From Ophelia neglecta (Eukaryota), in the NCBI GenBank assembly GCA_965285935.1, contig OZ260667.1:7936001-8000000 (forward strand): a DNA stretch of 64,000 nucleotides, in the 5' to 3' direction. A model generated the notes under the pieces. The model searched no databases. It saw nothing but the letters and a program-made list of their open reading frames with translations, and had not been told where the DNA came from. Both the position numbers and the translations under genes were made by a program. Numbering within the stretch: position 1 is the stretch's first letter; the number at the start of each line of letters is the position of its first letter. This document shows positions 30,320-62,109 of this stretch, piece by piece.

Positions 30320-31249
30320 TGTTTTTCTTAGCGCCGGAAAAGAAACAGACAAATATTAGTGGATTATATATGATTTTCTATTTCTCGGAAGAAAGGCTAG
30401 ATAACCACTAGACGGGGGGAACAGAATTCCACAGTTTAAACAGAGGAGATCGGAGAATCTCTCCCCGGTCATAGACAGATAGATTGTGAGCACTTCACTG
30501 TTAACACGAATCGTAATTATAAGTTACCGAGGAAACAATGACCCGGAGCAAAGAGGTGTAGGGATCAGCACATGCTAAAATGAAACCATAAATTGTTAAT
30601 GCCTGTATCACCGCTGGCAAACATTGGTTTTACATTAAATGGTGACGTGTGCAGTAACCGTGGGATATTTTTTTCATTAACAAACCCCACTCCCAAATAA
30701 AATGCAGTCGGCTATAGCCTTAAAGCTGACATGCCTAACGGAACACTAAGAAACAGACGTATTCCACCCAGCAGCGGGTTTCCTATATGCCCGCGGCCCC
30801 CATTTAAGCCTAGATTGCCGAAAGTGTTCTGTGATTCATACAATGCATGATTCTAACCACTGTATCTATATACTTGGACCACGATAATCAATGTTTCCAT
30901 TGACCAGGATTAAGTTTAGGACCAAATAGCTAGGTTTAAGACCAAATCCAGCTTCCGGAAACCCCGATTATTAAGAAGAGACCGATTTAAAAAGCACTTT
31001 AATCCAGATTTAAACCGAGTTAGGACTTGAGACCGCTTCCAGAAACCGGCCGGGGAGTTCTTTATTTGAACATATATAAAAGTTATAACTAATGTTTGTT
31101 TAACAAAACAGGACACCTACATGACCAATCCAACACATCGACCGAGGCGTCTCGTTTAAATGGTCTCAGTCAAGGCAGATCACCTACATGTATATCGAAA
31201 TTATACATTAAACTTTAACATTTTTCTTTTCCTTTTTATTCTTTTTTAA

Positions 31250-32315: not shown

Positions 32316-32544
32316 TTATAAAAACAATCAAAGCATATTGTATTAGATATAATAGCTACTATAACTAAATTAATGGTTACTGGTTTTCAAGAAAACACAT
32401 GCCAAATGTTCCATATATAGAAATTCATCTGGAGTAGGTTTATTTACAAATATATATTCTTTTCATATACTCTTCTGTCTACTATTATATATATACGGGA
32501 AGCATACAATTTGTGTGTGTGGATGTTTTGTTAAACAGGTAATA

Positions 32545-32723
32545 CATTGAAACCTGCCTTAAAGACCACCTCTTTAGTCAGACCACCTACAAATTCATAC
32601 CACTAATATGAAGACCCATAGAGCACTCTTTCAATGTTAAATAGCCTGTTTAAACAGACCACCTCTGTAATCAGACCTGTATTTGCCAGTCCCTTGGGTT
32701 GTCTTAATTCACAGGTTTCACTG
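32545..32723. mobile_element. MITE family A (opposite orientation)
   Basis: TA|cattgaaacctg...caggtttcactg|TA. Confidence 0.85.
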
Positions 32724-33525
32724 TAATTGAATGCTCCTCTGTTGTTAATGAGGGACATAAATGAAATAATAATGGTTTGACAGTTAGGTGATAAGCTGTA
32801 TGTTCGCGGTGTCGGTACATAGAGCAGTATAGAGTAGAACCTGCAGGTAGGCACGCTGCACCTTTTTTATCGGATCATTGTATTCGGCGCTGTGGTCGCC
32901 CCGCTGCTAAAAACAGTAGAATAATTCTGCGTTAACCCTAGTCTCACCCTGCTGCAAGAGCATGCCAGAGCTGCAATGTCAGGCAAACAGCGTTGCGCAC
33001 AGGGCAGCCTATAGACCTCCTGTTTTCAGAGGATGCAAATCATACCTGTGCAAAGAAATGCCAGTTTCCTGTGAATCTAAATGTAACAGTATATGTATCT
33101 TGAATTGTGTACTCATGTGCTTCTGAGGGCGGCCAGTTGAAACAGCCTAGGCTATTGTTGGCTTCCATTTAATAAAATGATTTCAAATCAAATAAAACAT
33201 AATAAAGCATTTTATGAATCGGATTATGACTTCGGTCATATCTGGATTTGAGCAATTGGCAGGTTTGCTGAAATAAACTTGGCGTGATTCAGTTCTCAGG
33301 TGGGATTTTTCCTAAAGGGATATTTATATAACATGCGCCCATTCATGGGCGTGTCAGTCTATTGGTCTGAATGGTGCCCAAGCCTGTGTCCAGGAGGGGC
33401 TTAACTGGTTAAGGTGGATCATTGCATCAAGTGAATTGATCATCTGAAATGCCTTATACCCTGGCAACGTATAGTTGTCTTCATTAATAAACAACTATAT
33501 GGTGCTATAGTATTAAGCATTTCAG

Positions 33526-33612
33526 ATGTCGGAGCCATCTACTCTTGGCCGTAGATGGACCATTATTGAGTTGAGCCGTACGTTCTCTATTAAGTATGCA
33601 CTTGGATAAGAA
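33526..33612 (+). pseudogene. Degenerate copy of the first (signal-peptide) coding exon of the CTLD-SRCR-IPT receptor
   Basis: ttcagATGTCGGAGCCATCTACTCTTGGCCGTAGATGGACCATTATTGAGTTG aligns with ttcagATGTCGGGGCTACCTTTTCTGGGTTGTAGTTGGACAATTATTGGGTTG at 37023. In-frame TAA at 33607 and the donor is lost. Flanking similarity spans ~33500-33750. Confidence 0.75.
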
Positions 33613-34183
33613 CGTTCGCGATAAGAAGGTGTTTTCAGAGGATACTTGTTTACTTTTTATAAACTCCCTTGTTAAAATATCCCACTGAACGCATAAGCCA
33701 GCCATTACGGTTACTCAGGATTCCATCGGTCTCTAAATACTAGTGGCCGACAAACTGCGCCCCAGTTACAATTTCTTCGTAAAAAAGTCGGCCCCAGTAC
33801 CGAATATCATAGCTTTTCACATCTACTTCAGGAAATAATGTTTTGCCAAGTTATAGCTTTGAGTATATATTCATTATCATTACAATAATCGGCCCCGTCC
33901 ATTCAAGGATATTTATTTACCTGGCATATAAAAGGATAACAGATATAAGCGGGCATAAATATGGCGCCGGATATGAACTCCCCCGTTTATTTCCGTATAT
34001 TCTCGTATGTTTAACATATATAATAAAAGACGTAATTTGCAGTGGTCGAATACATGTTTAATCCACGTGTTACTGTGAGGATGTCTATATATTCAGCTTT
34101 ACTATATGACTTTGCCATCCAGTCCCATGACAGACGATTTGTTATCGCTAGGGACTCTGTGACCTTCCTCCGGCCTCTGGAAG

Positions 34184-34340
34184 GGTGCCAGTTCCTCAGG
34201 TTCCATTCTATGTACAGAGACTTTAAATCATATGACAAGCCAGAGGTTCAGAGGGACTTCAACCAGATGTTTGATAAAGCAGTCTTGCCGGGAGGATATC
34301 GCCAGTTAAAGCTCTACAAGTTCAGCAGAAAATACTACTC
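34184..34340 (+). pseudogene. 3'-terminal fragment of the GT77-like glycosyltransferase
   Basis: 34184-34315 matches 50675-50806 with 5 mismatches in 132 nt (LRFHSMYR.FKS.DKPEVQRDFNQMFDKAVLPGGYRQLKL). No upstream GT sequence is present. Confidence 0.9.
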
Positions 34341-36282
34341 GATCGATCATTGCATCATATTGCTTGAAATACTACTCGCTCTCGATCATTGCATCATATT
34401 GTTTGATATACTACTCGATCTCGATCATTGCATCATATTGTTTGAAATACTACTCGATCTCGATCATTGCATCATATTGTTTGAAATACTACTCGATCTC
34501 GATCATTGCAATATATTGTTTGAAATACTACTCGATCTTGATCATTGCATCATATTGTTTGAAATACTACTCGACCTCGATCATTGCATCATATTGTTTG
34601 AAAAAACTACGCGCTCTCGATCATTGCATTATTTTGTTTGAAATACTACTCGATCTCGATCATTGCATCATATTGTTTGAAATACTACTCGATCTCGATC
34701 ATTGCATCATATTGTTTGAAATACTACTCGCTCTCGATCATTGCATCATATTGTTTGATATACTACTCGCTCTCGATCATTGCATCATATTGTTTGAAAT
34801 ACTACTCGCTCTCGATCATTGCATCATATTGTTTGAAATACTACTCGATCTCGATCATTGCATCATATTGTTTGAAATACTACTCGATCGATCATTGCAT
34901 CATATTGTTTGAAATACTACTCGCTCTCGATCATTGCATCATATTGTTTGATATACTACTCGCTCTCAATCATTGCATCATTTTGTTTTTAATACTACTC
35001 GCTCTCGATCATTGCATCATATTGCTTGAAATACTACTCGCTCTCGATCATTGCATCATTTTGTTTGAAATACTACTCGATCTCGATCATTGCATCATAT
35101 TGTTTGAAATACTACTCGCTCGATCATTGCATCATATTGTTTGAAATACTACTCGCTCTCGATCATTGCATCATATTGTTTGATATACTACTCGCTCTCG
35201 ATCATTGTATCATATTGTTTGAAATACTACTCGATCTCGATCATTGCATCATATTGTTTGAAATACTACTCGCTCTCGATCATTGTATCATATTGTTTGA
35301 AATACTACTCGATCTCGATCATTGCATCATATTGTTTGAAATACTACTCGCTCTCGATCATTGCATCATATTGTTTGATATACTACTCGCTCTCAATCAT
35401 TGCATCATTTTGTTTTTAATACTACTCGCTCTCGATCATTGCATCATATTGCTTGAAATACTACTCGCTCTCGATCATTGCATCATTTTGTTTGAAATAC
35501 TACTCGATCTCGATCATTGCATCATATTGTTTGAAATACTACTCGCTCGATCATTGCATCATATTGTTTGAAATACTACTCGCTCGATCATTGCATCATA
35601 TTGTTTGAAATACTACTCGCTCTCGATCATTGTATCATATTGTTTGAAATACTACTCGATCTCGATCATTGCATCATATTGTTTGAAATACTACTCGCTC
35701 TCGATCATTGTATCATATTGTTTGAAATACTACTCGATCTCGATCATTGCATCATATTGTTTGAAATACTACTCGCTCAATCATTGCATCATATTGTTTG
35801 AAATACTACTCGCTCTCGATCATTGCATCATATTGTTTGATATACTACTCGCTCTCGATCATTGTATCATATTGTTTGAAATACTACTCGATCTCGATCA
35901 TTGCATCATATTGTTTGAAATACTACTCGCTCTCGATCATTGTATCATATTGTTTGAAATACTACTCGATCTCGATCATTGCATCATATTGTTTGAAATA
36001 CTACTCGCTCTCGATCATTGCATCATATTGTTTGATATACTACTCGCTCTCAATCATTGCATCATTTTGTTTTTAATACTACTCGCTCTCGATCATTGCA
36101 TCATATTGCTTGAAATACTACTCGCTCTCGATCATTGCATCATTTTGTTTGAAATACTACTCGATCTCGATCATTGCATCATATTGTTTGAAATACTACT
36201 CGCTCAATCATTGCATCATATTGTTTGAAATACTACTCGCTCGATCATTGCATCATATTGTTTGAAATACTACTCGATCATT
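34329..36282. repeat. 39-bp minisatellite (~50 copies) with higher-order variant structure
   Basis: Unit ctcgatcattgcatcatattgtttgaaatactactcg(a/c)t. The variant ctcaatcattgcatcattttgtttttaat recurs at ~34965, ~35392 and ~36049. Confidence 0.97.
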
Positions 36283-37027
36283 ATGTTATTTGTTGTTATG
36301 GATATCATCATTTCATGTAGTGTCTCCTTTTTAAAGGAAGACGCAGCGTTTAACGGAATGCACACGATGGCAATTATTTTCCATATTTTGTTAACGTTTC
36401 CCATCAAAGATGCGGGATTATTTTCATTCTAAATAGTATACAAGAACCACTTATTATTAACCTTCTAACTTGCATCCGAAGCTGGCGAAGGAGTGTACTC
36501 ACGTTTTATGCTCTCTGGGTATATAACTGGTGAGAATACAAAAATCAATTCCCTCGTTAAATGTGTCTTGCATAGTTGGTTTTATGAATTGTGTTTTCAG
36601 CTATGTAGATATGGCAAACATCCAAACGCTCGAGGAGATCCTAAATAAGGAATGCATTATGGACTTGTTTAAACGTCGGGTAAAATAAACAAGCGTACTC
36701 CATGCATGAGAGAACCACAATGATCTCTTGGAGATAAGAAAAAACCCAGTCATTTAAACATTATGTTATTGAATCATAGCTTTATGCGCCCCTGAATACA
36801 TGTGTATTTACAAGTAAGCTTAGAAAATCCATGACATACAATGACTAGCTATACCGCCAACTTAAGGAAGAGGTTGTAGTTTTGACACGCTAAGGTGGGT
36901 TAAATCAATGTATACTGCAGACATTTATTTTCCAAATAGTTAGCACCTATTGCAATGTTAAGATTTGGATAACATAAGAATGTTTCATCACCACTATTAA
37001 TCACTGCCATTGTATTATGCAATTCAG

Positions 37028-40000
37028 ATGTCGGGGCTACCTTTTCTGGGTTGTAGTTGGACAATTATTGGGTTGTCCTGCATGTTTGCTATATGTGCGA
37101 ATGGATTAGAAGGTAAGTGATCAGCAGTACTATAAGTGTTAAGAGGGTACTCGTTTACCTAAGAAGAATTCCCTGTGACGACCTGGCCAATCCCTTAACA
37201 GAAGTCAGGAATCATCGGGTTGTGAAACCTGTAAATTGTGACCACCCAAGGAACTGTAAAATGTTGGTCTAATTATGGAGGTGGTCTGTTTAGACAAGTT
37301 ATTTTACATTGAAAGTGCAAAGTAGGGTCTTCGTATTAGTGGTCTGAATTGAAAGGTGGTCTGAATATAGAGGTGGTCTTTAAGGCAGATTTCACTGTAC
37401 TAGTATAGTAGCCCGACTTGCTTGCTACGACTGGGAGTGTTATGGACTAAGTGGCCCAAGGACAGCGTGTCTTAGATGGGGACGCACTATTACAAGAATA
37501 CTATTAAGGGGTGGTCATTTACTTTGGAGGGGGAGGGGCGCAAATCCTGAGGGGGGTCCAAGAATTGTGACACAATCTGTTGGGCGGGCGGGCGAGGGGG
37601 GGGGGGCACAAAATTCGGTTCGTATGTAGGGCGGAGGGTCATAAAACCATACACCCGTGACATTAATATATTATAATAATCTTGCTTCCTTTTCATTCCA
37701 TGCAGCACCCCTTCAGGTATAAATGTCACATTTTGAAGGTGCGCAAATAAAAATGTGGGCTCAGGGAACAATCAAAATTAAACCTGGTAAAGTAGATGGG
37801 GGGGCGGGTTAAAACAATCAGCGGGATCTCGTATTGGAGGGGTCATAGTGATTCAGTAGAAGACTACTAATCAGGGGTGGTCATTTACTTTGGAGGGGGG
37901 GGGGGGGTCAAAGTATTCTGACACCATCTGATGGGCGGGCGCGGGGGTGGGGGTCCCAAATTGTGCCCCATCCCCCTCGTATGGAGGCTAAAAAGTTTAG
38001 TAAAGGAAGTGGTCGAATAAACGTTTATTCCATGTGTTACTGTGGAAATGCAATGACTATTAAGAATGGACGGATATTTATAACTTTCGAAATTCTTAGA
38101 ACTGTGTGTCGTTCGGACCCTCAGATCTTTAGCACCGGACTTGAAATTCTTGTTTATATTTTCCCCGGTCTCAAATTAATGGTATCTTAATCTACTTGAT
38201 TACAAATTTGGGCCACACTAGTCTCGTGTGGGGGACATTTAAACCTGTATCCCTTCTCACCAGACCCTAAGTGAATGCGCTGCTTGAGTTATTATGTCTC
38301 TCCGGCTTGTGGGACAACGGTCATATACAAATATATAGGCTTTGCCCTTCATACTGTTTTTTCAATGATCACATCATCTTGTTTGCAGATGTCAATAACA
38401 CCTGGATACGAAGTAATGATACAGGGGGTTGTTATACATTAATCAAAACGAGACTGTCTTGGTTTGATGCCAGGGATTACTGTATTTCACAGGGAGCATC
38501 ACTAGCATCAACCACTTCACCGGAGGAATTTCAAGTTATTCTAAGTAGGTATCATTATGGTTGGAATACAAACTGAAACATATTTTAATCCATTCCGTTT
38601 GGTAACAAGCAAAAGGCCATTCAAACTTGGTAAATCACAATTTTGGAAAAGAAGAATGGCTAGTAGGGTAAGATTATGCTTTACGCAGAGGTCTTTAGCC
38701 TGCTATAGCCCATCTCTGTGAATCTTTAGTGAGTGTGGCAAATGGAAAATTTTATGGGTCCAACGTGTACCCAGACAGGAATTGATTCAATGTATTACAA
38801 AACATAACAGCTTGTGTCATTACTTGCACACCCTTTACGATACACACTTACTATTGAACTCTTTTTAGTTTTGGAGGAGAAAATAGTCAAGTTTATCGGA
38901 TAGTAGCCAACTCTTAACTAAGGTCAAATTGAATTGAAGAATCATGAATTCTACCCACATTTTGAAAAGAAATTACGACAGTCGTAATTACTCATTTGTT
39001 TATGATGTAAAATTTCCCCATAGATTTAGACGGGTTATCATTCAACGAATCGCGGACGTATTGGCTTGGTGGAAATGATTTTACCACTGACGGACAATGG
39101 ACCTGGGCGGATGGTAGTCCGATGGGACCTTGGATGAAATGGCACGCAGGTGAGTTGTGGCGCAACACACATTAAACAACATAAATGTGAATTGCTATTT
39201 ATTCGTATAAATGAATATTTTTGGTACAACACACATTAAACAACATAAATGTGAATTCATATTTATTCGTATAAATAAATATTTATGGCACAACACTCAT
39301 TAAACAACATAAATGTGAATTCATATTTATTCGTATAAGTAGATATTTATACTTATAAAAGTAATAAGATGCGACGGTCATATTATTTTTTATTATTAAA
39401 GTATTGGTTTACTGAAAAGGTCGACAAGATTATCATCTTTTTCGGACCTATGATCTAATTACGCGTTTTTATCTACGCACAGGTGAGCCAAACAATACTG
39501 GACAAGGACAGTACTGTGTGGTTTTAAGGTTAGATGATGAGGCTGGATGGAGTGCCGTGGAATGTGCGGGGAATGTAAATCCCTTCGTTTGTTTCATTAC
39601 AGGTGAATATCGCAATTTTAGACATGCATGCCACGGTAGAAATATTGTGGAATAAGTAGGAATGCAATAACTGACAAAGCTAGTATAGCCACTCTCCCCA
39701 TAAATAGAAAAGGATTCTTCAATTCTATAATGAATAGGGTAAATAAGAATAATTTCTCTTTCAATTCCTTTGCATTAAACAAGATTGTTAATGGTAAACG
39801 CAGTTTATAAATATATTTATAGTCAGTTCTGGCATGATACCACAGTGGCGGATTCAGGGGGGGGCCCTTTGCAAAAAGTGGGCCTGGACCAGGGCCTATT
39901 TCTGGACCCACGCAAGGTGCTTTTCCAGAGGGTTGGTAACGGGGACAATCCAGACATTTGCCTTGTCAGCCTTGGAAAATTTTGCCTCCCACCCCCCTTC

Positions 40001-43000
40001 CTATAATACTTGATCCGCCACTGTACCGTTTTAACAAAATACTGCACATCTTTATTTTAACACCTAAATGCAGCCGATATAGATCTTGTTGATGGTTCGA
40101 GTCCATCCGAGGGCCGTGTTGAAGTATATCGTAACGGTTCGTGGGGGACTGTTTGTGATGACTACTGGGATGATTTAGATGCTAGGTATTGTGAAATACC
40201 ATACACGTTTCAAATAAACCCGCAGACAAAATATATCATAAAAATGATATTTTGTTCAAATCTTAATGAAGTCAGAAGGGGCTAATTTTATATTCCAGCG
40301 TTGTGTGTAGAGAGATGGGCTACAGCGGAGGGAAAGCAACACAAGGAGGGCACTTTGCACAAGGCACTGGGATAATCTGGTATGACAATGTGCGTTGTAA
40401 TGGGACAGAACGTTCTCTGGCCCATTGTCCAAAACGAAGTCTTGGTGTGCATGACTGTCTGCATTGGGAAGATGCAGGTGTGATATGCCAAGGTAATGGA
40501 ACATTCTTTTACCTTCTAATCCATCAACCCACCTCCAAAAAAAAATCGGTATTGCAATTTTAAGAAATGTTATTCAAAAATGTTATTTTTACTATATTTA
40601 CACCTCTTGTTGTGGCCATTGACCTGTTTTCCAAGTTGTATATGAGTAACTAAGGATGTCTTATTGTGCCTGTTTTAGACTCTCTGGACAATAATGTAAC
40701 GTGCCGACCCTCCAAGCCTGGGTTGAAGCTAACTACTGAATTATCGGCAATGACAACTACCACAAGCCAATTAATTACTTCATCGCTTGCCTCAGGTACA
40801 CCGCATTAACAAAACAAGCATGTCTTATTTATTAGATTTCAACGTCGATATAGATATATAATTATTCATGCTCTTTATTCAAAGAAAATATGTTCCCTTT
40901 GTTTGCTAAATTGTCGATAGAAATACAATTTATAGCTTCATCGGAAAGCAGTCTCGCCGTTGTTAAATCAACCGATCCAAGCCAAACATTGCCGCCCGGT
41001 AGGTCTCCATAACAATTGCCAGAACTACATATCTGCTACCACCTCAAGTGAATTAGTATTAAGCAAACACCCGTATTCATATTTCATATGAATATCAATA
41101 CACATTTCTAAAACAAAAAGCCTAACCACGTTTTGCCATCATAGTTATAGTGACACAAGTGGCTCCCTCACACGGACCCATATCAGGAGGCACTGCGCTG
41201 ACCATTCAAGGAACTGGCCTCCTAAATTGGCGACTGGCAGCGGCCAGAATAGGAACTCATCAAATTGCAAACATCACGTGGTATTTAATCATATCCTAAA
41301 TACATATAAATGTGGTTATTAATTAAAGAAAAAAAATGATATGAATCATATCGGATTTTTCTCTCCCTCTCGCAAGCGCGTCTAAATAAGGACTTTAATA
41401 GAATGGAACATTTTAAAACCCAACGTCTATTTAGCATCCATGTATGACGTTATAAGGATGTCACACATTAGTAACCAACTAAATAAAATTAACCAAATCG
41501 TATCTTTTTATTCACAAAGAGTTTGAATAAATACAAGCAAATATAAAACGACCGACAAAATGAAGTGATAAAATTTGTTATATTTTCTTAGGCTTGCCAA
41601 CGGTATTTTACTATTCACGCCTAGAGGAAGTGAGACGTATAAAGATTTTAAAATTTTCTTGGTATTGACTGACGGGTCAGTCATTGATACTCAGTTTTCT
41701 TTCACCTACAAACCTGACCCGCAAATATCAGAAATTCACCCACTAGAAACTATAACCAGGTACTCCGCTATACTTTACAATTTGAGAAGTATGGGATATT
41801 GGCTTATTAATGAAGTTCATTCAAATACGTTTCCTACAAAAATGAATCCACACCAGGTCCTAAACGTACTACTGCCTAAATTTAATACTGTGTTCGATGA
41901 AGCAAGAAAATGTGCACAAACTACTTAAGCACATTAGATCGACCCCACCAGAATGATAAAAATTAAAAAAAAATATCCGGTAATGAACTCATCAACTTGA
42001 TAGCATTATTTTCCTCTTCCCTAGTGGCGGTACAAAGTTAACAGTACAAGGAAAGTATTTAGATTCGGTAGCCGACCCAGACCTACTGATGACTCTTTCG
42101 GCTAGAGACAAACAGTCTTTGAAACAGAATTTGGAATTGACTAGTGTAAGTGTTGTTTGGAATATAAAACTGTTTAGCGAATGTCTTTGAGTTGAATGTT
42201 TCTCAACATTGAAGCAGCTACACTGTATCTTTAGGTGACATAAGAAGTCAATACAATACATAAAGTCTCGTAATGGCACGAAATTAAGTAAAACGCCTTT
42301 TTAAATATGTTATCTGCAGCAATGCGAAAAAGAAACTGTTAAGTTCAACAAGATGTTCTGTCAGACTCCAAACACGACAGGCTACATCAGGCAGGATGAT
42401 ATAGACTTCTACGAGTTGTATATAGGGTTGAAACTGGATGGAGTGCCTACATACAGGAATCTGTCGGCCACACTACCACAATATTCTCAACTACAGGTCT
42501 TTAGGGATCCTGTGCCTGAGAATTTTGCCGAGGAAAAGTTAATTGAATCCGGGAAACCGCTGGTCATTGAAGTACGTTTCAAAGTATAGGCCTATATTTT
42601 TTTCATATTTCTCACCATGACTTGTTAATTCATAATTAAAATCTACTATCAATAAATTCTATACATTGTAAAGAAGATTGAATGATGAATGGGCAATTAA
42701 AGTCAAAAACTACAATGACGTGACAAAGAAGCTAATTTTATTTTCAACGAAGGGCGAATCACTGAGCAAGGGATGTAGTATGGATGACTACAAGATTACT
42801 ATAGGTCATGGTCGCTGCCATGTTGAAGAGTTGCTAGACAATGAAGTGCGCTGTTGGCCGCCAGAAACTTCACCACAACAAAAACCTGATGAGCGACAAC
42901 TGGGAGACAACAAATTTAACCTTTTGGTAAGGGAACATTCTGATACTTAAAGTAAAACGTCAATCTAAACATATATACTAAACAATAAGATTGGACTACC

Positions 43001-44042
43001 ATAGAGAAGTAGTCCCAACTCTTAACTCGTATTAAAATCAGGATTAAGTCGGTCTCATCTTGCTAAACATGGCTTTTGGAAACTATGTTTGGTCTTAAAC
43101 TTAGCCAATATTGTCTTAAACTTAACCCCGGTCAGTGGAAAGTTACAGCAACACCAATTGACCAAATTATAGTAGGCTTATCTGATCCAGGAACTTACGA
43201 CTGCTTAAAGAATCTGGGGCTAACTAATCAATTATTTCATGGATTGGTGTTGAATTGAAGTTGATTTTCATCATGCACAAAAATGACCTCAATACACAGT
43301 GTTATTGCAGGTACAAGTCGGGTACAGCGCCGTTCATCAACTTGGTATTGTCTATTACTACAAGGATAATACTGTTCTGTACGTCATCATTGGGTGCTCA
43401 GTCGCTGCCGTGCTGGTCATTCTAATGGCAGTCATCGCCTGTGTCTTAATTAAGAAGAGATACAAGCCCGGCGCATACAGTGAGAGGACAATGGGAGATG
43501 GTGAAGTCTTGGAAGGTCCACTGGACATTACCAGTGGAGGAAATGACATGAATCTCTCTGGACAGAACAGCAGACCAGAGAACTCAATTGGTCATTACAA
43601 TCAAAGTTTGGCGATTTCGAGTGGACACACTAGCTTCAACGAATACGGTGGAGAAAATCCTAGAATAGCGTCTAAAGATGAACACGATCCTAACGGTTAT
43701 CCCATTGGGAAGCGACAAAGACAGGAAAATGAAGAAGGGTATCTACCACCCCTAGGAAGACCAACAAAGAGGTATTTACCCGAGGGGGGCAACTCACTGC
43801 CGAACTGGGTAAATGATTCAGACGGGGTCTACGAGTCTAGATCACAAAGAGAATGGTCAGGACAGCCGCACCGAAATCATGCGGCTGGATCAGGCATGAT
43901 AGCATCAAACAGTAATATGAAATGGCACACTGCTGGACTACCCAGGGTTACCAAAATGGCTCGCGCTGTCAATCAACGAAGGAGGCTGCCTCGAGATGGG
44001 GCCAGGCCAGATCCCTTAACTTTCGATGATGAATATTATTGA
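37028..44042 (+). CDS. Type I membrane receptor: signal peptide, C-type lectin domain, SRCR domain, S/T-rich linker, 3 IPT/TIG (plexin-like) domains, TM, ~200-aa cytoplasmic tail; 14 exons, 851 aa
   Basis: Exons: 37028-37112, 38389-38544, 39024-39149, 39483-39602, 40074-40185, 40299-40492, 40679-40795, 40936-40998, 41145-41280, 41592-41759, 42025-42145, 42320-42571, 42753-42926, 43311-44042. All GT-AG, 2556 nt, in frame. CTLD motifs: CY...[31 protein letters not shown] motifs: [43 protein letters not shown] motifs: [40 protein letters not shown]....CWPP. TM: [26 protein letters not shown] followed by KKR. Confidence 0.9.
37221..37397. mobile_element. MITE family A
   Basis: gtgaaacctgtaaattgtgaccacc...gcagatttcactg|TA; absent from the paralogous remnant at ~33730. 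Confidence 0.8.
37505..37995. repeat. G-tract-rich interspersed repeat, related copy at ~63110-63540
   Basis: Shared tgacac..tctg.tgggcggg, gggtcataaaacca..cacccgtga and ttccatgca.caccc; internal re-start ggggtggtcatttactttggaggggg at ~37874. Confidence 0.6.
39163..39340. repeat. 64-bp tandem repeat (~2.7 copies), intronic
   Basis: caacacacattaaacaacataaatgtgaatt... starts at 39163, 39227 and 39291. Confidence 0.9.
39843..40023. mobile_element. MITE family D
   Basis: TIR cagtggcggat/atccgccactg; core gggcctatttctggacccacgcaag...ggggacaatccagacatttgcctt. Confidence 0.85.
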
Positions 44043-44370
44043 CTAAGACTAGATTGCCAAGTACATGTGCAGAAAAAACGCAGTACACTTGTGATTTGAA
44101 AGGTTTCTTAAGCATACGGAAAGGACTTTGTCTCTTCAGGCCCACATATCGTTTATATTCAATGATACTACACTCTTCTATTAGACTACTTAAATTGGAC
44201 GTGTAGATATAAATGTATTAATATGTATGTAATGTTGTTTATACCCCCCCCCCCCCCGCACCTATTGGTGGTTGACCAATCAGGAGCAAGTTTTACCTGT
44301 TTTATTTTGCGATAAAGCACCTAAAACTACTATCTTCGATATTCTGGCAGTGGTACAAAGTACCTATATA

Positions 44371-44544
44371 CAGTGAAACCTGTGAATTGAGACCACCAAA
44401 AGGGACAGGAAAATACTGGTCTCATAATGGAGGTGGTCTGTTTAGACAGGTTATTTTACATTGAATGTATGCAGTAGGGTCTTCAAATAAGTGGTCGTAA
44501 ATTCCAGGTGGTCTGAATATATAGGTTGTCTTCAAGATAGGTTT
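44371..44544. mobile_element. MITE family A (right end degenerate)
   Basis: TA|cagtgaaacctgtgaattgagaccacc... same internal sequence as the other copies. Confidence 0.8.
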
Positions 44545-45794
44545 AGCTTAGCGGATGACAATCAATAGTATTTTGGATTGCAGTTTGAACGGCTCAAGAC
44601 AGTCGGGCCGCAAAGACAGTAAAAATGCTTGAATGAACTTCAAAAATACAATTTAAAGTCACAAAAATTCTAAATCGTTTCTTGCCTGTATTAAAGCTGG
44701 CATTTGGCCTTACGAACAACAGTGACCTATCATGGAGCGTGGTCTGTTTTGGGCTCGAGATATGAAGGGTGTCAACATGGTCGAGTCAGTTCTAAAATGT
44801 ATATCCTTATGCAAATAGAGATTTTTGACAGACTTTGAAATGCTATTACCGTTTTCAATATGGCGGGTTTGCTCATTAGGGTCACTAAAGGACGATGGCA
44901 ACTGCGCGGTCTTACGACCTAAAGGTGTTAATCGTGCAAGTGTACGCGGTCGTGAAGTCAGCTCCGACGTTTAGTCCGTACCTGCGATATCAGCTACAGC
45001 AGACAGCATTTCAAAGTCAATGAAAAACTTCGGCTTGCGAAGCACAACGCTGGTGGTTTGATCCATCGGTGTACTGTGGTCAAAAACATAACACACGTTA
45101 CCATTAAGTCAGCTAATTGTGACTCATGAAGTGCCTAGGCTTCGCATTTCCATTTTATACAATTTCTGCATGGCTCTAGCAGTACAATAATTTCAGTGAA
45201 TAAATAAAATAGTATTATAACCCTTTGTATTGTATTCTGATCTGTCTCGATCTAATATGGATTCAGTTAATACATTATAGCGATATTTTCGATAAATATA
45301 TTTAACCTATGAGCAATATTACCACTGTAGGGTGTTTAAACAGAGGCAAGTCATTTTAATTGTAACATAAATTTAAGTATGCAGGAACAGGTAGAACGAT
45401 ATAGTCAGTGGTTTTCTTTATTTAAGTATACGAGGTTATTTGGCTGTCCGCCAACCCGGCAAATAGAATCAGTTTTATCTTTTTGTTGTACAATAATTGA
45501 ATGATCGTTATGCGGCGGTACATTATTATTTACAGTGCATTTTGACCGTGTTATTAAAAAGTGTGTTCGAGATCGTTCGCAGAACGTAATAAGAACGTGA
45601 CACACTCTAATTCGCCTAACTATGCAAACGTGCTGATTGTTTGTTATTGTATTTGCCCCATTGTTTGACACCTTGGCCCGGTTTCTGGGAAGGGTATTAG
45701 GATTCGGGATTACAATAGGCTGTTACGATTAGCTGAGACCTGCGAACCGAGCCATAGTTCGGGGTTAGGTTTAATATCAAATTGGCAAATTCGT

Positions 45795-46140
45795 CCACAT
45801 AAAGTTAATAAAATGGTCCTCCGGCTTTTATGTTTCAATTCTGAAAAAGGGGGTGAGGCATGATTTTTATTATTGATTTTTTTATTATTTACGCAAAAGT
45901 GTTAAGGGTTAATTCGGTACAATAGGGTGAGGCAGATTTTTAGGACTGTTTTTTGACAGTTTTATGAGAACTTTCGGTGTCTAAAAGGGGGGAGCCGCGG
46001 TTTTATTAATTTATTTCGTGGGCGCAAAGGCGGGGTGGGGGTAGACACTTATTTTTATTTATTCTCAGAACAGAATACGAAGTGGGTGCGGAGATTCTCA
46101 GGGGGAGCGAACGGTGCCTGATTTTATATTTATGTGGCCT
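45795..46140. repeat. Interspersed TIR repeat (ccacataaa...tttatgtgg), related pieces at 62268-62430 and 63780-64000
   Basis: Shared ttaataaaatggt, aaaaagggggtgaggca, tacaatagggtgaggcag and tcagaacagaa motifs. Confidence 0.6.
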
Positions 46141-48081
46141 TATGAAAGTTAATTATTTCGTGCTATAATGGTAAATATCATATAATCCATGGTCTGTTAG
46201 ACCATTTATATTCTTTAAAAAATGTACGGCGATAGAATTTAATAATCGTTAAGGAGGAAATAATAGAAATGAAATAAGTCCTGTAATAAATAAAAGAGTG
46301 ATAATCAAGAGGAATGTAGACGGAAAGCACTTGGAGTTCTAGAAAACCTAGAGACCCAATGAAGAGCAAACTGCCTAGTAAACACTCCCGTGAAAGTTGT
46401 ATCCTTTTGAACCAACACAATACTAGCAAATTGCTGGGTACTTGAAGAATAAGCCTTTGCTGGAGCATGCTCACAGACAATGATAAATTAGGAACGCCCA
46501 GGTACTTGCGGGGGAGGAGGCAGCTAAATATTTCTGTAGACAATTTTTTTCGGCCATATTTTGATAAGAAACAGTTTGTGCAAAGTCTTTGAAAATAGGA
46601 TAGTTTGCTTGGACCAAAGAAGGAGTTACAAGTATTCTTTAAATAGCCAAATATACGTGTCATTAAATTATGATACGATAAAATTTAGAGAATAAAAAAG
46701 GGGTTCAAAAAGACTCTTCAGAATACCTTCTAGACCTAACCCCCCACCCACCTCACCCCTACCCAGCAAGTTATATAATGGTGCGATTCTACTAGCTAAG
46801 ACTGTAGTTAGCAGGATTGACATCGCAAAATCGAGTTACGTTAAGCTTACTAAACTGGAAAGTCACACAAGCCCACCGATGTGTACAGGCGAACAATATC
46901 AAATATAAGGAACATATTCATAGCAGGCGTCTTTGAGTCTGGTCCCTTACTCTATGGTTAATTCAGAAGGTGACAAGCGAACGCTCAAGGCAAAAGTAGT
47001 GCACTGCGGCTTCGTTGGTTTATGCACAATTGAATTATGACTTTCTCACTAGAAAAGCATTAATATTCATTAAGTACTTTTTACATATGCATAGGCATAT
47101 CATACCTGCATTAATTAACATGATTGATTCAACGCTAGCACGAGGCATGACAATTAATGCTATGGTAAGACATCCTTAGCATTCCGTGTATACGAGTTTG
47201 GTTGGTAGACTATCGCCTGTAGTCATTTGTTTCTCAGGACCATAATGAATATGTACGAACGACTACTCTTAGGCATATCAAATATTAAAGTCGAGTATCG
47301 GGTATTGAACAGAACTAGTTGTGAACTATTTATCTTGCTCTGACGCTAAAATGATATGTGCACAAAAAGGCACAAAACAAAGTATTCCGTGATGTTGTGT
47401 GAATCAAACCAGTTTAAACGTCTGAAACGCAACGAGCACTTTAGATGACACATTATTCCGGTGAGTTTAACAATTTATATTTTATTCCTAGTGCAATAAA
47501 ATAAAATATTGAACTCGTCTTCTGAAACAATTGCTCTTCGTGCTACACTCTGGGCTGAGTTGTTTACGCAATGCTCTTTTTTCCATCAGCTGCATAAACA
47601 GCAAAATGCTGTTGGAGGGATAATTGGAGCCATTCCTCTTAGGCGCAAGGGGATCCATAAAAAGATTTCGACATAAGTTCCCAGTGCATAAAAATTGACT
47701 CTGGCTACAAGTTATAAAGACTTCATATAAATAGATGCAAGGATGAAGTGTAAGTCATTTTAATGTGTATACTGGTATAATGTAAGATTACTTCAATATA
47801 TGCATCCCATCTATTTGCTGTATAATTGCTCATAATACAACAAAACAAATATTAATGATGACTCGTTGAAACCGGAAATGGAGTTAATGTACAAAGACTA
47901 ACAAGGATACTACTTTTGTGATTTTGGAACTTAATTGCAGAGGACAATTGCAATCAAATCTATATAAGTTGTGTGCCGTAGAACACATTTTCATATTATT
48001 TCAAGACACAGTTCCTCCAGCCTTATCTTTTTTTCTATAGTGCAATAACTTGTGTTAATCATTCGTCCCTCATCTCTCCAG

Positions 48082-50829
48082 CTTGGCGAGTGAAGGTGTT
48101 ATGGCGGATGCTGTTAATAATGACCATCCAATGTGCGTTTCTTCTGTTTCCCGCTAGAAAGTGGTTAGGAGACTTTCCTGCAAGTGGGAATAATGGTAAG
48201 TAACTCGGCCCTGTCACTCAACATGTTTAATATGATTCTTCGTATTGATTATCGCAAGTAATGGACAGTGAAACCTGTGAATTAAGACCACCCAGGGACT
48301 GATAAATACTGGTCTGATTACAGAGGTGGTCTGTTTACAAAGGTTATTTTAGATTGAAAGAGTATACTGTGGTCTTTACATAGTGGTCTGAATTGGCAGG
48401 TGGTCTGATTTTAGAGGTGGTCTTTAAGTCAGGTTCACTGTATATTATTTTTGTAAACTTTGATGAGGGTGACGGCATGGAAACGGTAGAATTGGATTCC
48501 AGATTCGAGGGGGAGGGGGGGGGGGGGATAACCTCACCCCCACCCTGCCTTCAGAATTGTACAACCGTCGTCTAAAATCTTTTTCCTGAGTAGGTTTATG
48601 AATTTTACTTAGCAAGTAAAACATGCAAGATATTCATAAAATGGTTATTCCTAACCATCACAGGCATAGGTTACATTATTTCGGAAGTTATTTATGCCCC
48701 AGACATGCTTAAAGCCCTTGCAAGGGTAATTAAATTATAAAACTTACAACTGCAGTGTACATACAAGCAATGTGCGAATTAAACGATATGCCTGCTACTT
48801 AGAAAACTGCAAAGGGCCTATCAAATAAAGATGCCAGTGCTTTGGGAATTTAAACTATATTTGGCATGATCTAAAACTAACAACCCTTGAGAGGCAAATA
48901 TGTTGTTATAATTCCGACTCTTCTACTAACTATGGCTTATTCCAAATCCGACCTTACAAGTCTTGTGAACGAATGACTGAAAATTCACTATTATCAGTTG
49001 CGATCACACTAAATCGTATCATATTTTGAAGAGCTTAGGTTGTTTATCTAAGAAAGACTTTAGCTAACTATTTGAAAGAGATTTTATGTAACTGTTTGTG
49101 TAGTTTATTAAGTAATTGGAAGGTCAATGAAAAGCTCCGGCTACTGTTGGTGCCTCTCTGACTGTCAATGAGCCACAGGCCACCTCAAGCCTCAGAGCGC
49201 ATGCGCGGGGACTCAACAGCTTGATGGGAATTTAACAGGGAGGGTCGCCTATGCTGGGTAAGGTCAGATGGAAACTGAACAGAGGGGCAGTCGAGATGTA
49301 GCGAGATAATTGAACGGACTTGTTGGTGTGGAACTGTGTTTCGGCATGAATCGTCACAATATGCTTTGTTTTGATAACCAGTTTATTAAGATACTTTCTT
49401 ATTCCATTTAGAATTTATACCACAACAAACTGATGTGTTGTCAGAAAATCAAATGTCATTTACGGTGATAAGAGCAAGACCATTTGTGGCAGAAGTAAAG
49501 AAGAGAGTGAACCGTCATGGGTTCATCATAATCCCCGCGGTGATAGACCACGCTTATGTGGACATGGCGCGGAACTTCTATGAAAGCAGCATTAAGCGGT
49601 TACAGTTAGAAAACAACACCCTCTTCGTGTGTGCGGAACAGGACGCCTGTGACGAGGCACAACGTCAGGGACTCCCTGTTTATCTGTACAAGGACATCGC
49701 AAGGTCATCCGGACTGTTTGGTTCCAAGGAATTCATTCAGAAGGAGACGATTAAGCTGGATGTGATAAACGAAATCATCAATTCCGGGCATGGTGTACTA
49801 CTCACAGATTTGGATATGTTCTGGTTCAAGTCACCAATTGATGACGTGATTAAAAATTGTGGAGACAAGGACTTTGTTGTTCAAAATGAAACCTTTAACA
49901 CTGATTTGAACATCGGTTTCATGTACATACGCCCCACCCGGGCGTCCAAGAACTTGTTCAAAAAGATGATGCGATTTTCAGGTTCAGAATGCGCTCAAGA
50001 CATTTTCAACAAATTTGTCCGAACCCATAAAAGCAGATTGAAATATAAAGTTCTTAGTGTAGATGCCTACCCAAATGGTGTAACATATTTTGAGACTCAC
50101 GGGCGTATTTTGAGAGGTCAGAATCCGTGTGAACAATGTTTATTGGTTCATAATAACTGGATCGTTGGGACAGAGGCCAAAGTTTTCCGGTTTAAAGAGC
50201 ACCACATGTGGTATTTGGACGACAAGGGCTATTTTTCTGATCCTAATGCCAGGTACCTCGTGTATGAGAACGTGTTAGGGCCATCGGGCACCGAGAATAT
50301 AACTGCTCTGGAGAGGGGTGTGTTGAAAGGTGCATTGGCCATTGCAAAAATACTTAACAGGACCCTCATCCTCCCACAGAGATTTCACTCTAAAAACCGC
50401 GAAGTTACCGCTTTAAACGGAATTTTGATTATAAAAGTCTTTGATAAATACTTCAATCATTCGTATCGGGAGAGCACATTTCTTGATCACTCTTTGGTAC
50501 CCTTACATGTAAAGAAAGGGGAATGCGGCCCCTTGCTCATCAAAAACAATTTTTCCCAATCCACTTTCCCAGATGAAGAACAAAATATGAGGACTGTTTT
50601 TCAGCCTAATGATATGGAGAATGGAGCGATGGAGGGAGAAATACGGAACTGGTTGACTAGTACACCGTTTGTTAGGTGCCAGGTCCTCAGGTTCCATTCC
50701 ATGTACAGAGTCTTTAAATCATTTGACAAGCCAGAGGTTCAGAGGGACTTCAACCAGATGTTTGATAAAGCGGTCTTGCCGGGAGGATATCGCCAGTTAA
50801 AGCTCTTTCGTGTTAAGCAGAAATTGTAA
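48082..50829 (+). CDS. GT77-like nucleotide-diphospho-sugar transferase (type II Golgi glycosyltransferase, GT-A fold) with C-terminal extension
   Basis: Large exon 49412-50829 contains DXD (LLTDLDMFW), LNIGFMYIRPT, Q..FN, YPNG..YF, VHNNW and ALAIAKILNRTLILP. A phase-compatible upstream exon 48082-48195 encodes a signal-anchor (WRVKVLWRMLLIMTIQCAFLLFPARK). The start is uncertain: in-exon ATG 48108, or micro-exon ATGAAGT|gtaagt at 47743-47749. Confidence 0.85.
48266..48440. mobile_element. MITE family A
   Basis: cagtgaaacctgtgaattaagaccacc...caggttcactg|TA. Confidence 0.85.
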
Positions 50830-51383
50830 CTCGACCATGGCATTATATTCTTTATCATTGAATCATATTGTTGGAAAAACTATTCGATCATTGTATCCTG
50901 CTTTGTTGATATGGGTATCGTAGTTTTGTGTGTTTATTATTATGAAAGACGCAACGACATTGTGAAAGAAACACATCATGTGTGCCATTGCATCTGAGGC
51001 CGATAATGTCATGTTGGCTACGTGAGGCCACGTTCATACTAATTTATTTTTTGATTTTTTCTTAGCAAGCCAATTATGTATACAAAGTATGCACGCCTTT
51101 TATACGAGACATATGCTTGAGTAAACTGACAAGTCATCGGCTGGGATTGACCAGGAGAGGACTACAATTACAACTACAATAAGGATAATACAGTACCAGA
51201 GTTTCCTCAACATATCAATGCCATTGAAAGCGGAAAAGGATAGGTTTACAGTTTTAATGCTTACATAATTTTAATGTTAAATGTTCATGCTTTATCGCGC
51301 CAAAAGACTGCGGGCCTTCTTGACATACTACTTTAGAATTGAAGCTGAGGCTAAGGTCGTTTTGGATGCTGAGGGTAGTTGTT

Positions 51384-52447
51384 AACTAGGCCAACGCTGT
51401 CGGTGGGCCGACAGCAAGGGGTATATCCGCGAATGCGTGCAATAATCAAATGGGGAACATGGCATAAGGCGAGGTAGTGAATATGGTAGTTGTTAGTTGG
51501 CACAAAAGATAACGACCTTAACTAATTTTTGTTCAGGTCATTAATAAAGTTAAACTAGTTAACTCATTACACAGGACTAGCTAACTTATTACACAGATTG
51601 TAGTAGGTTCTATTTGACCTCAATAATAATGCAGGTCATTCTTAAAGTTGGTGTCATATGACCTCAATAATAATGCAAAACGACCCTAACTAATTTTTTT
51701 CAGGTCATTAATAAAGTTAACTAGTGAACTTATTAGTAGGTTTCATAAGACCTCAATAATAATGCAAAACGACCTTACCTAATTTTTTTTCAGGTCATTA
51801 ATAAAGTTAACTAGTTAACTTATTACACAGTACTAGTTAACTTGTTACACAGATTGTAGCAGCTTTTATATAACCTCAATAATAAGGCAGGTCATTAATA
51901 AAGTTGGTTCCATATGACCTCAAGAATAATGCAAAACCACCTTAACTAATTTTTTTCAGGTCATTAATAAAGTTAACTGGTTAACTTATTATACAGATTG
52001 TATATAGTTATTACATGAATCATGACACAAAACTTCAAGCCAATATCATCTATACTTTGGAATATTTGATAGAAAATGTGTTTTTGACATAATTAATTAA
52101 TTATTTTAACTGATTAATAATTATCAGAAATTCACCAGAATAAATCCAGGCCTTCCTCTCACTTAGGTCAATGGCTGTGTCAAATTAGAAAAAGATGTAT
52201 CAAATATTTTTTGTGTTATTGTGGAAAATGCGTTTCTGACGTAATTAATTAATTGTTTTAACGAATTAATAATTATTGGATTTTCACTAGAATCTCCTCA
52301 GTTCCTCCTCTCAATAAGGTCTATGGCTGTGTTGAATTTGAAAAAGATGTACGAAATGGTTTTTGAGTTATTGCATTAACGACTAAAATCTGCGGCAGCG
52401 GCGGCGGTGCTACTGAAAACGTAATATCCTCATTTCGCAGATATAAT
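51384..52447 (-). mobile_element. Non-autonomous Helentron-type element (HINE/DINE-1-like) with internal tandem repeats
   Basis: Sub-terminal inverted repeats tatatccgcgaatg (51422-51435) and catttcgcagatata (52431-52445); terminal hairpin gctgtcgg-tggg-ccgacagc (51396-51415); (GGC)n microsatellite ~52392-52407; tandem array 51510-52000. Confidence 0.7.
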
Positions 52448-55400
52448 GATATTACTACTTTGTAATTAATTTCAGTATGCTGATTTTTTAAAGAATAAAC
52501 AATTTGCCCAATTTCATCGCATAAGTGATGTTCACTAGCCAAACGGGCGGTTGCACAAATACTGTTAACTACTTTATTTCACTGGTGTTGACTTTGCTGA
52601 TTTAACAATAATACAGATATTTGATTATTGACATTAAATATATTCTAGCAATTACCTGCGGGCAACAACAATGATGCAGCAGTGCATTTAAATTGGAGGT
52701 CACAGTGTCGCAAAATGCAAATAAAACAGATTATCTTAAAAATGGATGACACATAACTGGGCAAGTAACCCCATCCCCCAACTCTCTTGGTTGACAAATC
52801 ATGTTTTAACATGACCAAGAGAAAAGTAGACAACTTTTGATTCCTATTTAAAAGAACATAAAATGCGGCTACCAAGCACAAGATTTAATTTGCTGTCGTC
52901 AATCCCTTTAACCCGCAATGGATTCGCCTTCCTCCCCTCTAGCCCGACCCAACTGACCACTCTCCTGCCCAACTCCCCCCCCCCCTCTCTCTCTCTCTCA
53001 TTCCTCAAGGCTCCTACCTCTCACTCTAGAGCCCCCCCCCCCTTTCCTCCCACCACTTCCCCTCCCAATATTGCACTAGCCTTCTTCCATCAAAGTCCTG
53101 CCCTCCCCTCCTTCATCCAAACCCTGCCCCTGCCCCTGCCTCTCTTGCCCGCTCCCACTCCTATATTGGCCCATTGCCCCTTCCTCTCCTAGCCCCTGCC
53201 CCCTCCGTTGCCACTGTATAATCTCAAATTCATCCCCCCCCCCTCCTTCCCCCTCCCCTTCTTATCCCCCCCCTCCCTCCTGCCCCCATCCCCTATAAAA
53301 GGTTTTAAAAAGCAGATTACCAAAATGTGGTTGCAACTGTATGACTTACTGGCTCTGCAGTCATACGCTCAGTTGTATAAGTATTGAAAGTGCAAGTTAC
53401 ACCAACCGGCATGCATCTATCATGGAATATTATATATTCAGCAGAGTAAACCTAATGCCCTTTGGAGAAGGGTGAAGGTGTTCAGTTTGGTAATTTAATC
53501 ATATGTAAAAAAAAAAGGGCGATTTCCAACCCGTGAAAGTGAACGAAAATATTTCCAAGCTAGGGGCGACACAAAAAATGGCTTATGTAAAGGTCATATA
53601 GGAATAAGTTATATAAGTAAGATGAAAAGCATGCAAACCCATTAAAATATACCCCCCCCCACCTTGCCTTTGACTAAAATCAGACATGGTTACCCAAGAA
53701 GAGAGATAGTAAGTAGGTAGATCAACAAATGTGATGTAGGCAAATGGAAAATATAGGTCAACCGCACCACTCAATTGATTTGCGACAAAATATAATGACG
53801 TGAGAGTTTCGTGCTGTAATTTCACAAGTATAGCCCAACTATTGCTATGGACTATTTTAATAGGCATATGCTATGCTAAATGAGTAGCTGGACTAGGCCC
53901 ACTTTTGGCCTAACCCCCCCCCCTTCCCCCCCCCCCTCCCCGTGGAAACTGAAATCACTGATTATATATAGAAGGGTGTCTAAATGCGCAAAAACGTGGA
54001 CATGAAGAATAGTTCGCAACATTTTCTGTGTATGTTCACTGCGGATGACATATGATAGATTTTTTTCCTTTTTTAATTCAAGAATATGACCCAACATAAG
54101 CTTATATATATATGAACACGTCAAACAAAAAACACACATTGGTGACTATATTCACAATCTATATTTTGAGTCATTTTCTATGTTCTTTCTTACTCTCAAT
54201 AACCTGATAGGGTGGGACGGGAGTCAATTTGGTGCCGGCCCATAAGATCGGTAGGTCCTCTGGCTAAAAAGACCCCTCCAACTGAAATCCCTAGAATAAC
54301 AAGACCTCGGGGACTTAATTGACCAGTGTTTTGCGACCGGGAACAATGAGCCTTAGGGCTCAGAGTGCTGTGATACCTAGTCCTAGGACTTGGTGTCTGT
54401 ATAAATTTAATAGTAGGACTCAGTGTCCGTAAGACTCGAGGGCCTAGCTTTCAATGTCTAACATACTGACTGCCTACCATAATTTTTCACTATATCTAAT
54501 TATTCGATGTATCAAATATAAATATAAATATGAAACTACCTAATAACATTAATAACATTATAACATTTTAACTATCCTCGTCCTCTCTATCATACACCCC
54601 GAAAGCAACCAGCCATCACTACCGTTTCAAGTTCTACCAGCTTTGAAAAATAAATCACCTGCTGTCTACTACTGCACACCCTAGAGAAAATATTCACACT
54701 ACTTGAACAGGGCAAGGATAATGGTAGCGCCTGCTTTTATGAGTGCAATAGTATGATATAAATTCTCTGGCTACGCAATCAAATATGAAATGGATAGTTA
54801 TGTAAAACATCAATATAATTTTAAATAGTAGGCTATGTGACCATGTTGTATCGATTAAGTATACTGTCACGCTATCGGCTCATTGGGTGAGTGGATAAGA
54901 CTGTCGTCTTGCTTGCATGCGATTGCACAGTTTTTACGCCTGCCAAAGATGACGGGATTGACTCCCATCGCAAGCTTTCTCATATTCCCTCATTTCGCTG
55001 AAGCTCACAAAATTGCACAAGTTTGAGATGATAGCTATCTCACATAAAAATTGCTGTAGCGGTTCTTGGATAACTTTGTGATGACTACTTGCGATATAGA
55101 CGCTGCGTAGAGACATATATCATCTTCTAGATTTTAAACACTTATTTAATACATACCAATGTTGAATTCCTTCATAGATTCAGTCCCTGGCATAATTAAA
55201 TATATTCAGGCGGTAGTACATTTGTATTCAGTTTATATAGCAACCTCCCCAAACGCTCAAATGGCCAGGCTATCAGCAGACTGGTCACAATGCAAAGTGG
55301 GCGGTTGAGTGAACAGCATAGTGCTGCGACAGCAGAGCACAGCAATAGTGATAGTAGGGATAGAAGTGAAAGTAGTAATGACAGTGATAGTAGTAGTGGC

Positions 55401-61931: not shown

Positions 61932-62109
61932 CAGTGAATCCTGTAAATTAGGACCACTCAAGGGACTGGAAAATGCTGGTCTGATTTTAGAGGTGGTCTG
62001 TTTAGACAGGTTGTTTAACATTGAAAGTATACTTCATGGTCATCATGTTAGTGGTCTTAATTGGCTGGTGGTATGATTATAGAGATGGTCTTTAAGGCAG
62101 GTTTCACTG
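61932..62109. mobile_element. MITE family A
   Basis: cagtgaatcctg...caggtttcactg|TA. Confidence 0.85.

Follow-up and report, generated by a model that had tools for sequence, protein, structure and literature searches.

Probable debris of one tandem duplication beside a lectin receptor gene and a GT77-like glycosyltransferase gene in Ophelia neglecta

Tandem segmental duplication with pseudogenization is the birth-and-death pattern of clustered gene families. A different arrangement is seen for mammalian NKRP1 and CLEC2, which form genetically linked receptor/ligand pairs that interact protein to protein and recur across family members (excerpts of PMC3819593). We analyzed a 64-kb stretch of DNA, called the window here, that spans positions 7936001-8000000 of contig OZ260667.1 in the 762-Mb genome of Ophelia neglecta (GCA_965285935.1). 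In this window, an intact gene for a lectin-bearing type I receptor (37028-44042, + strand) is followed by an intact glycosyltransferase (GT) gene (47445-50829, + strand) and preceded by decayed pieces of both. These remnants are probably what is left of a single old tandem duplication, ~14 kb in size, that carried two unrelated neighbors by chance. Features are given in window coordinates; the contig is called C12 and other contigs are named in the same way.

As in other birth-and-death duplications, a decayed copy lies collinear with the intact genes beside it, a dead exon has decayed neutrally, the deletion junction carries a repeat fragment, and gene conversion is probable. Nothing essential differs, and here a minisatellite also likely grew from the dead 3′ flank. 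With NKRP1-CLEC2 the locus shares a lectin-like receptor that lies in a lectin cluster and a neighbor proposed as its partner. However, NKRP1-CLEC2 ligands are proteins and the pairing recurs, whereas here the partner would be an enzyme, in a pairing that is seen a single time. Invertebrate lectin repertoires are usually large and variable, according to the portions of PMC10140915 that we consulted. Among publications judged by their titles and the openings of their abstracts, we found no linked glycosyltransferase-lectin recognition locus. We regard the locus as ordinary gene birth and death, in which co-duplication alone is no proof of partnership.

Remnants of a duplicated segment

The decayed first coding exon of the receptor, with its flanks, occupies 33401-33669 (+ strand) and matches 36882-37174 at about 70% identity. 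The local alignment score was 126, compared to a maximum of 46 in 200 shuffles. Its ATG is at 33526, an in-frame stop falls at 33607-33609, and both the signal-peptide core and the splice donor are degraded. The proportions of differing synonymous (pS) and nonsynonymous (pN) sites are 0.38 and 0.30. Identity is 70% to the neighboring receptor, compared to 54% and 57% to the first exons of paralogs, of which only two were found. Further downstream, a block of receptor intron 1 (34002-34089, + strand) is homologous to 37976-38060, with 63 matches and 14 mismatches (score 64 versus a maximum of 48 in 100 shuffles), and forms the left side of the deletion. An imperfect 88-bp inverted repeat (78%; 33441-33528) ends at the remnant ATG and was not reported for the intact gene.

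At the deletion junction lies a ~100-bp fragment of a dispersed repeat (about 34090-34186, + strand) that has 34 other copies (76-97% identity). The other copies extend on both sides. The fragment overlaps the GT remnant by three bases (GGT) and is absent from the intact unit. Judged by its translation, which resembles RNase H motifs, it is probably part of the RNase H region of a retrotransposon of the non-long-terminal-repeat class, although Pfam did not confirm RNase H in either of two pieces.

The last ~50 codons of the GT gene remain at 34184-34345 (+ strand). Between 34184-34315 and 50675-50806, 127 of 132 bases are identical, with two synonymous and three replacement changes; the final codons are 31% diverged. 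This coding remnant is 96% identical to the window GT, compared to 72% for its paralogs on C9 and C1. A 39-bp minisatellite of ~2 kb follows (34330-36276, + strand; Tandem Repeats Finder period 39, 50.3 copies, 93%). Its unit matches the GT 3′ flank (50854-50889) at 86-89% identity and likely grew from it, and the array had no match in 1.22 Mb of other loci. The 3′-flank remnant itself (36244-36349, + strand) is homologous to 50854-50957 and 24-31% diverged, with a score of 103, whereas the highest of 200 shuffles reached 62; taken by itself, the portion past the array unit is a marginal match (45 versus 44 in shuffles). The intact flank (50830-50957, + strand), the likely source of the unit, contains the last detectable homology to the upstream copy. 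We rejected the idea that the GT remnant is a retrocopy, as no poly-A is present and its flank is as old as the receptor remnant.

The remnants are collinear, with the same strand and order as the intact receptor and then the GT, and neither they nor other upstream queries matched anything in 140 loci (1.22 Mb). A preliminary description made from the sequence alone had placed an exon-1 remnant, a GT 3′ remnant, an intact receptor, and an intact GT in this order, all on the + strand, and the alignments, which score above shuffles, bear out those coordinates. It had also reported homology to the 3′ untranslated region up to ~36350. This holds for the flank match at 36244-36349, but most of that stretch is the 50-copy 39-bp array. 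The missing span is about 12.6 kb and the minimal duplicated unit about 14.1 kb. The proposed ~14-17 kb tandem duplication followed by a ~13 kb deletion stands in outline, although the ages of the blocks need an extra event. Single short-read contigs cover 32724-34262 in two of three runs and 33438-34262 in the remaining run; all three derive from one sample, which may be the one that was assembled. Thus, the remnant-to-remnant junction is not an assembly join. This read support covers that junction and stops short of the array and of the point where it meets the intact receptor.

Divergence is unequal among the blocks. Six pooled blocks contain 122 mismatches in 432 sites (28%), compared to 5 in 132 (3.8%) in the GT coding block (Fisher P 7e-11); when only synonymous sites are considered, the GT block differs from the others with P 0.03 (24 sites). 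The GT coding block has pS 0.083 and pN 0.029, while pS is 0.24-0.57 in a functional pair of ANF-receptor-domain genes in the same window. High identity of the GT remnant stops where protein conservation in the family stops. Selection alone would not account for the low pS of the GT block, because selection should leave synonymous sites diverged. The blocks therefore lack the single age that one event would give. Since divergence is 4% in the GT block and 28% elsewhere, one duplication and one deletion are insufficient, and conversion or longer selection is needed. Probably, homogenization or continued function preserved the upstream GT copy well beyond the death of the receptor copy; in the simplest reading, both did so until the deletion.

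We propose that a member of a dispersed, expanding GT family landed in a lectin-rich part of C12, beside one receptor of a clustered family. The segment would then have duplicated in tandem, giving blocks that are now about 28-30% diverged. The upstream receptor copy may have died early and decayed at a near-neutral rate, while its GT counterpart likely remained in use, or was subject to gene conversion, for much longer. Later, about 12.6 kb would have been lost, with a retroelement scrap left at the junction, and the GT 3′ flank would have been amplified into the 2-kb minisatellite. The intact receptor and GT likely work independently.

The intact receptor and glycosyltransferase

The receptor gene has 14 coding exons with GT-AG borders throughout and an open frame of 853 amino acids. 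The encoded protein consists of a signal peptide, a C-type lectin-like domain, SRCR, a Ser/Thr stalk, an IPT/TIG stalk, a membrane span, and a tail of ~190 residues in which tyrosine motifs are present and a kinase is absent. When the window and the fetched receptor regions were searched by tblastn with two kinase domains, none was found; the receptor frame ends at 44042. Pfam E-values in exon pieces were 2.8e-17 and 1.9e-9 for SRCR and 5.4e-6 and 0.052 for TIG. Lectin_C gave 0.0016 and 0.021 per exon, and the PF00059 scores of 19.6 and 16 bits, which fall under the 22.6 cut-off, are those of separate exon pieces. The lectin domain carries an EPN motif in exon 4 and WSA where WND-type calcium ligands are expected, whereas a WxD motif is kept in eight other lectin exons picked out by pattern. 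WND residues ligate calcium, but sugar binding is possible in invertebrate lectins whose motifs deviate (excerpts of PMC12842671). Since EPN is kept but WND is replaced by WSA, sugar binding by this domain is uncertain.

The receptor stalk is 27-34% identical to IPT receptors, including tyrosine kinases of Owenia (CAH1793778.1) and Ptychodera (XP_070544682.1), for which identity is 27-29% over about 360 residues. With these kinases and with Met/Met-LP, as described in part of PMC6374515, the receptor shares a membrane-proximal IPT stalk and a membrane span. Unlike Met/Met-LP, it has neither Sema nor PSI, its head is lectin plus SRCR, it has no kinase, and it exists in at least 27 clustered copies. 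Lectin and SRCR fill residues 29-265, leaving no space for Sema. The receptor is therefore built like the Met type with another head and no kinase, and falls outside Met itself. Judged from literature listings, we found no description of a lectin and SRCR head on a Met-like IPT stalk with a kinase-free tail. The protein is likely a cell-surface recognition protein that signals via its tyrosine motifs without a kinase of its own. A full HMMER scan for relatives gave 90 matches, the majority of them short fragments. Pfam was run on 13, names were checked for 10, and three bacterial-looking ones were set aside. When the receptor exon alignment was used to look for longer related proteins in a word-indexed library, one unnamed protein of 150 residues was returned.

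The GT gene is PF03407 (GT77-like), with predicted exons at 47445-47460, 48082-48195, and 49412-50829. The second and third exons join in frame (main frame 49390-50829), and a short first exon that would give a protein of 516 residues is possible. The match to PF03407 (1.2e-24, 87.9 bits) is above the cut-off of 22. A signal anchor is predicted from one of the predicted exons (19-residue window, hydropathy 1.83), the exons having been joined from sequence only. The DxD motif reads DLD in 23 of 23 aligned rows. The predicted structure has a predicted local distance difference test score of 90.2 and consists of a GT-A domain and a C-terminal POFUT-like domain. The GT-A domain aligns with 6mw8 (Z 15.8, root-mean-square deviation 4.3, 214 residues aligned), and other GT-A enzymes tie within about 1; the C-terminal domain aligns with the N-terminal half of POFUT2 (Z 10.7, root-mean-square deviation 3.8, 167 residues aligned). 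Plant XEG113 presumably has a similar two-part build. The protein is likely a Golgi-type, metal-dependent GT-A enzyme.

The best named relative of the GT is a hypothetical protein of Paralvinella (33%), an annelid like Owenia. PDB sequence searches returned no match in one case and two in another (E 0.7 and 1.6), none of which was accepted, and a metagenome scan with the GT gave 72 pattern matches but no relative and no such locus. Known GT77 enzymes include plant arabinosyl- and xylosyltransferases (RRA, XEG113, RGXT) and Dictyostelium AgtA (excerpts of PMC3797821 and PMC8724618). With the CAZy family GT77/PF03407, the window GT shares the PF03407 match, DxD motif, GT-A fold, and predicted signal anchor. 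It differs in being an animal protein, in belonging to a family of at least 25 loci, and in having a C-terminal domain like half of POFUT2. One by-product of this analysis is an animal expansion, to at least 25 loci, of a family whose known enzymes are mainly those of plants and protists.

We compared alleles using collapsed short-read contigs from one sample, which is a weak test. Among the 40 of 374 differences that were listed, 14 fall in 13 receptor codons, of which seven are replacement and six silent (pN/pS about 0.4). Contigs covering the GT coding region differ at 0 of 1569, 3 of 1215, and 1 of 1405 letters, which gives no hint of a second, deeply diverged haplotype in the sample, and the sole GT difference listed is the same letter as in the remnant. 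As 21 of 555 letters differ in the non-coding interval 30300-30854, receptor variation is, on this weak evidence, not unusual and the GT is quiet. One allelic difference, at 38432, converts Cys43 to Trp; the window receptor already lacks the partner cysteine seen in paralogs.

Paralogs across the genome

Both genes belong to large families, for which our genome-wide counts are lower bounds. At least 24 other GT loci lie on C1, C2, C5, C7, and C9, with none on C12, and at least 26 other receptor loci have strong matches to receptor exon 12, 14 of them on C12 and eight on C8. Three weak C1 matches to this exon were left out of the count. A second receptor-GT pair occurs at none of the 24 other GT loci and none of the 26 other receptor loci. 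For the other GTs, the contig either lacks a listed receptor or has none closer than 14.7 Mb; for the other receptors, the nearest GT is that of the window, at 238 kb. There were no GT matches in 380 kb around receptor paralogs, and no SRCR or IPT in 16 regions that hold 20 of the 24 GTs.

The sister clade of the window GT consists of loci on C9 (24.69 Mb) and C1 (96.62 Mb), with support of 100/99. No lectin, SRCR, or IPT match was found in 60 kb around each (~25-30 kb either way). C9:24.69 Mb and C1:96.61 Mb are related by a recent inter-contig copy of at least 15 kb, about 95% identical; on the C1 side, the GT is interrupted close to its start by a stop and a broken frame. When GTs duplicate, whatever sequence lies beside them is copied too: the C9/C1 and C2/C2 segments are 88-98% identical. 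Of 49 lectin exon matches, 40 fall in C12:7.13-11.92 Mb, a 4.8-Mb lectin-rich region that contains the window, so for a gene landing there the chance that a lectin exon lies no more than 12 kb away would be 18% or higher. A genome-wide Lectin_C search, in which 150 of 581 candidates were scored and the window's own exons were missed, gives no background rate. Since both genes are members of large families for which no pairing was detected elsewhere in the genome, the receptor and GT are likely chance neighbors and not a matched sugar writer and reader.

Several GT paralogs have neighbors of their own. At three loci (C7:68.44-68.46, C2:38.45, and C2:38.58 Mb), a GT77-like gene lies directly upstream of a GT64 gene on the same strand, a repeated pairing of two enzymes, and a potential splice donor close to where the upstream gene ends hints at a fused transcript. 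Seven near-identical GT copies lie at C2:14.67-14.85 Mb, spaced 23-38 kb apart.

A second by-product, and the more interesting one, is the clustered receptor family; both by-products may be of greater importance than the duplication itself. At C12 7.1-9.5 Mb, C8 4.5-5.8 Mb, and other places, at least 27 receptors share the same IPT stalk, and in many of them this Met-like stalk bears lectin and SRCR heads. Their tails are kinase-free and often contain GYLxP; both GYLxP and RRRLPRDGA are common to several tails. It is plausible that these are immune or recognition receptors. At least six more lectin genes, without an SRCR or IPT match and some with complete EPN and WND, lie at C12 7.796-7.811 and 8.03-8.08 Mb.

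Competing explanations and adjoining features

A single old tandem duplication of chance neighbors has several observations against it. The young GT block requires an additional event, and the evidence that synonymous sites give for its youth is thin (2 of 24 differ; the binomial P is 0.009-0.10, according to which rate is assumed). The breakpoints are unplaced: 33670-34000 and 36350-36880 have no detectable homolog, and a comparison of 32730-33420 with 36280-36900 revealed no homology (score 26). One of the weak C1 receptor matches dropped from the count lies about 300 kb from a GT, and in one of the 16 GT regions a two-domain lectin gene (C7:68.444-68.448 Mb) lies 7-10 kb from the GT, beyond a GT64 gene. 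That lectin gene is unrelated to the window receptor, and the related C2 GT loci have the GT64 gene and no lectin match. A functional link unique to the window locus, on which paralog counts do not bear, could also exist. The youth of the GT coding block relative to the receptor remnant, as well as the repeat fragment exactly between the two remnants, would suit two separate events, in which an old local duplication of the receptor 5′ end was followed by independent insertion of a GT 3′-end copy with retroelement filler, for example through break repair. However, the last GT codons and 3′ flank (24-31%) are as diverged as the receptor remnant, order and strand fit a tandem unit, and no poly-A tract follows the 3′ flank, making two events unlikely. 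There is an extremely small chance that the remnant is instead a chimeric gene of recent origin. An open frame of 201 codons (34036-34641) begins in intron sequence, crosses the retroelement scrap and the GT tail, and continues into hydrophobic 13-residue repeats, remaining open across both junctions, and pN is below pS in the GT block; but in-frame joins arise by chance one time in three, 37-bp units interrupt the frame, and pN/pS rests on five changes. Mis-assembly, which the preliminary description had raised as a source of the remnants, or a haplotype artifact has a negligible probability. Although a 2-kb tandem array occupies the center of the region, and the supporting contigs stop short of where it meets the intact gene, single contigs cross the remnant junction in all three runs, and the remnants are about 30% diverged, far beyond the allelic differences seen (0-4%).

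The preliminary description had also suggested that the receptor and GT could co-evolve as writer and reader of a glycan, and that more receptor-GT77 pairs be looked for in the genome. Under this hypothesis, a GT77-like copy captured within a cluster of lectin receptors would write a self glycan that is read by the lectin domain of the neighboring kinase-free, Met-like receptor, with both inherited and copied as a unit. If true, this would be a new kind of self-recognition locus, linked and in an invertebrate. The genes are indeed adjacent on one strand (receptor stop at 44042 and GT start at 47445-48108, about 3.4-4 kb apart) and were duplicated together; the lectin domain has EPN, several allelic differences in the receptor are replacements, one other GT paralog has a different lectin nearby, and linked receptor-ligand pairs exist in vertebrate lectin clusters (excerpts of PMC3819593). 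Yet the search for additional pairs yielded none (0 of 24 GT and 0 of 26 receptor loci). Of the two upstream copies, that of the receptor decayed and that of the GT remained similar to the intact gene, and these apparently different fates argue against an obligate pair. In the one sample, the GT is nearly invariant (0-3 letters in 1.2-1.6 kb) and the pN/pS of listed receptor variants is about 0.4, and WND is replaced by WSA. A writer-reader pair is thus highly unlikely, and the unpaired paralogs support the more modest suggestion, made at the same time, that co-duplication may simply reflect adjacency.

Outside the proposed tandem unit, a dispersed repeat (51378-52450) on its right has copies with 85-96% identity on C1, C9, and elsewhere on C12. 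A very abundant dispersed element of ~180 bp has six copies in the window (3291-3476, 32540-32726, 37222-37402, 44369-44544, 48261-48443, and 61927-62113). The minus strand of 170-30355 contains two tandem 5′ halves of ANF-receptor-domain genes, which we take to be receptor guanylyl cyclase-like; their exons are 82-89% identical (pS 0.24-0.57, pN 0.03-0.10). The pair is apparently a second tandem duplication that adjoins the locus and survives. An intron of one ANF-receptor gene contains a 33-bp minisatellite (27935-29226; 39 copies) that is open in several frames.

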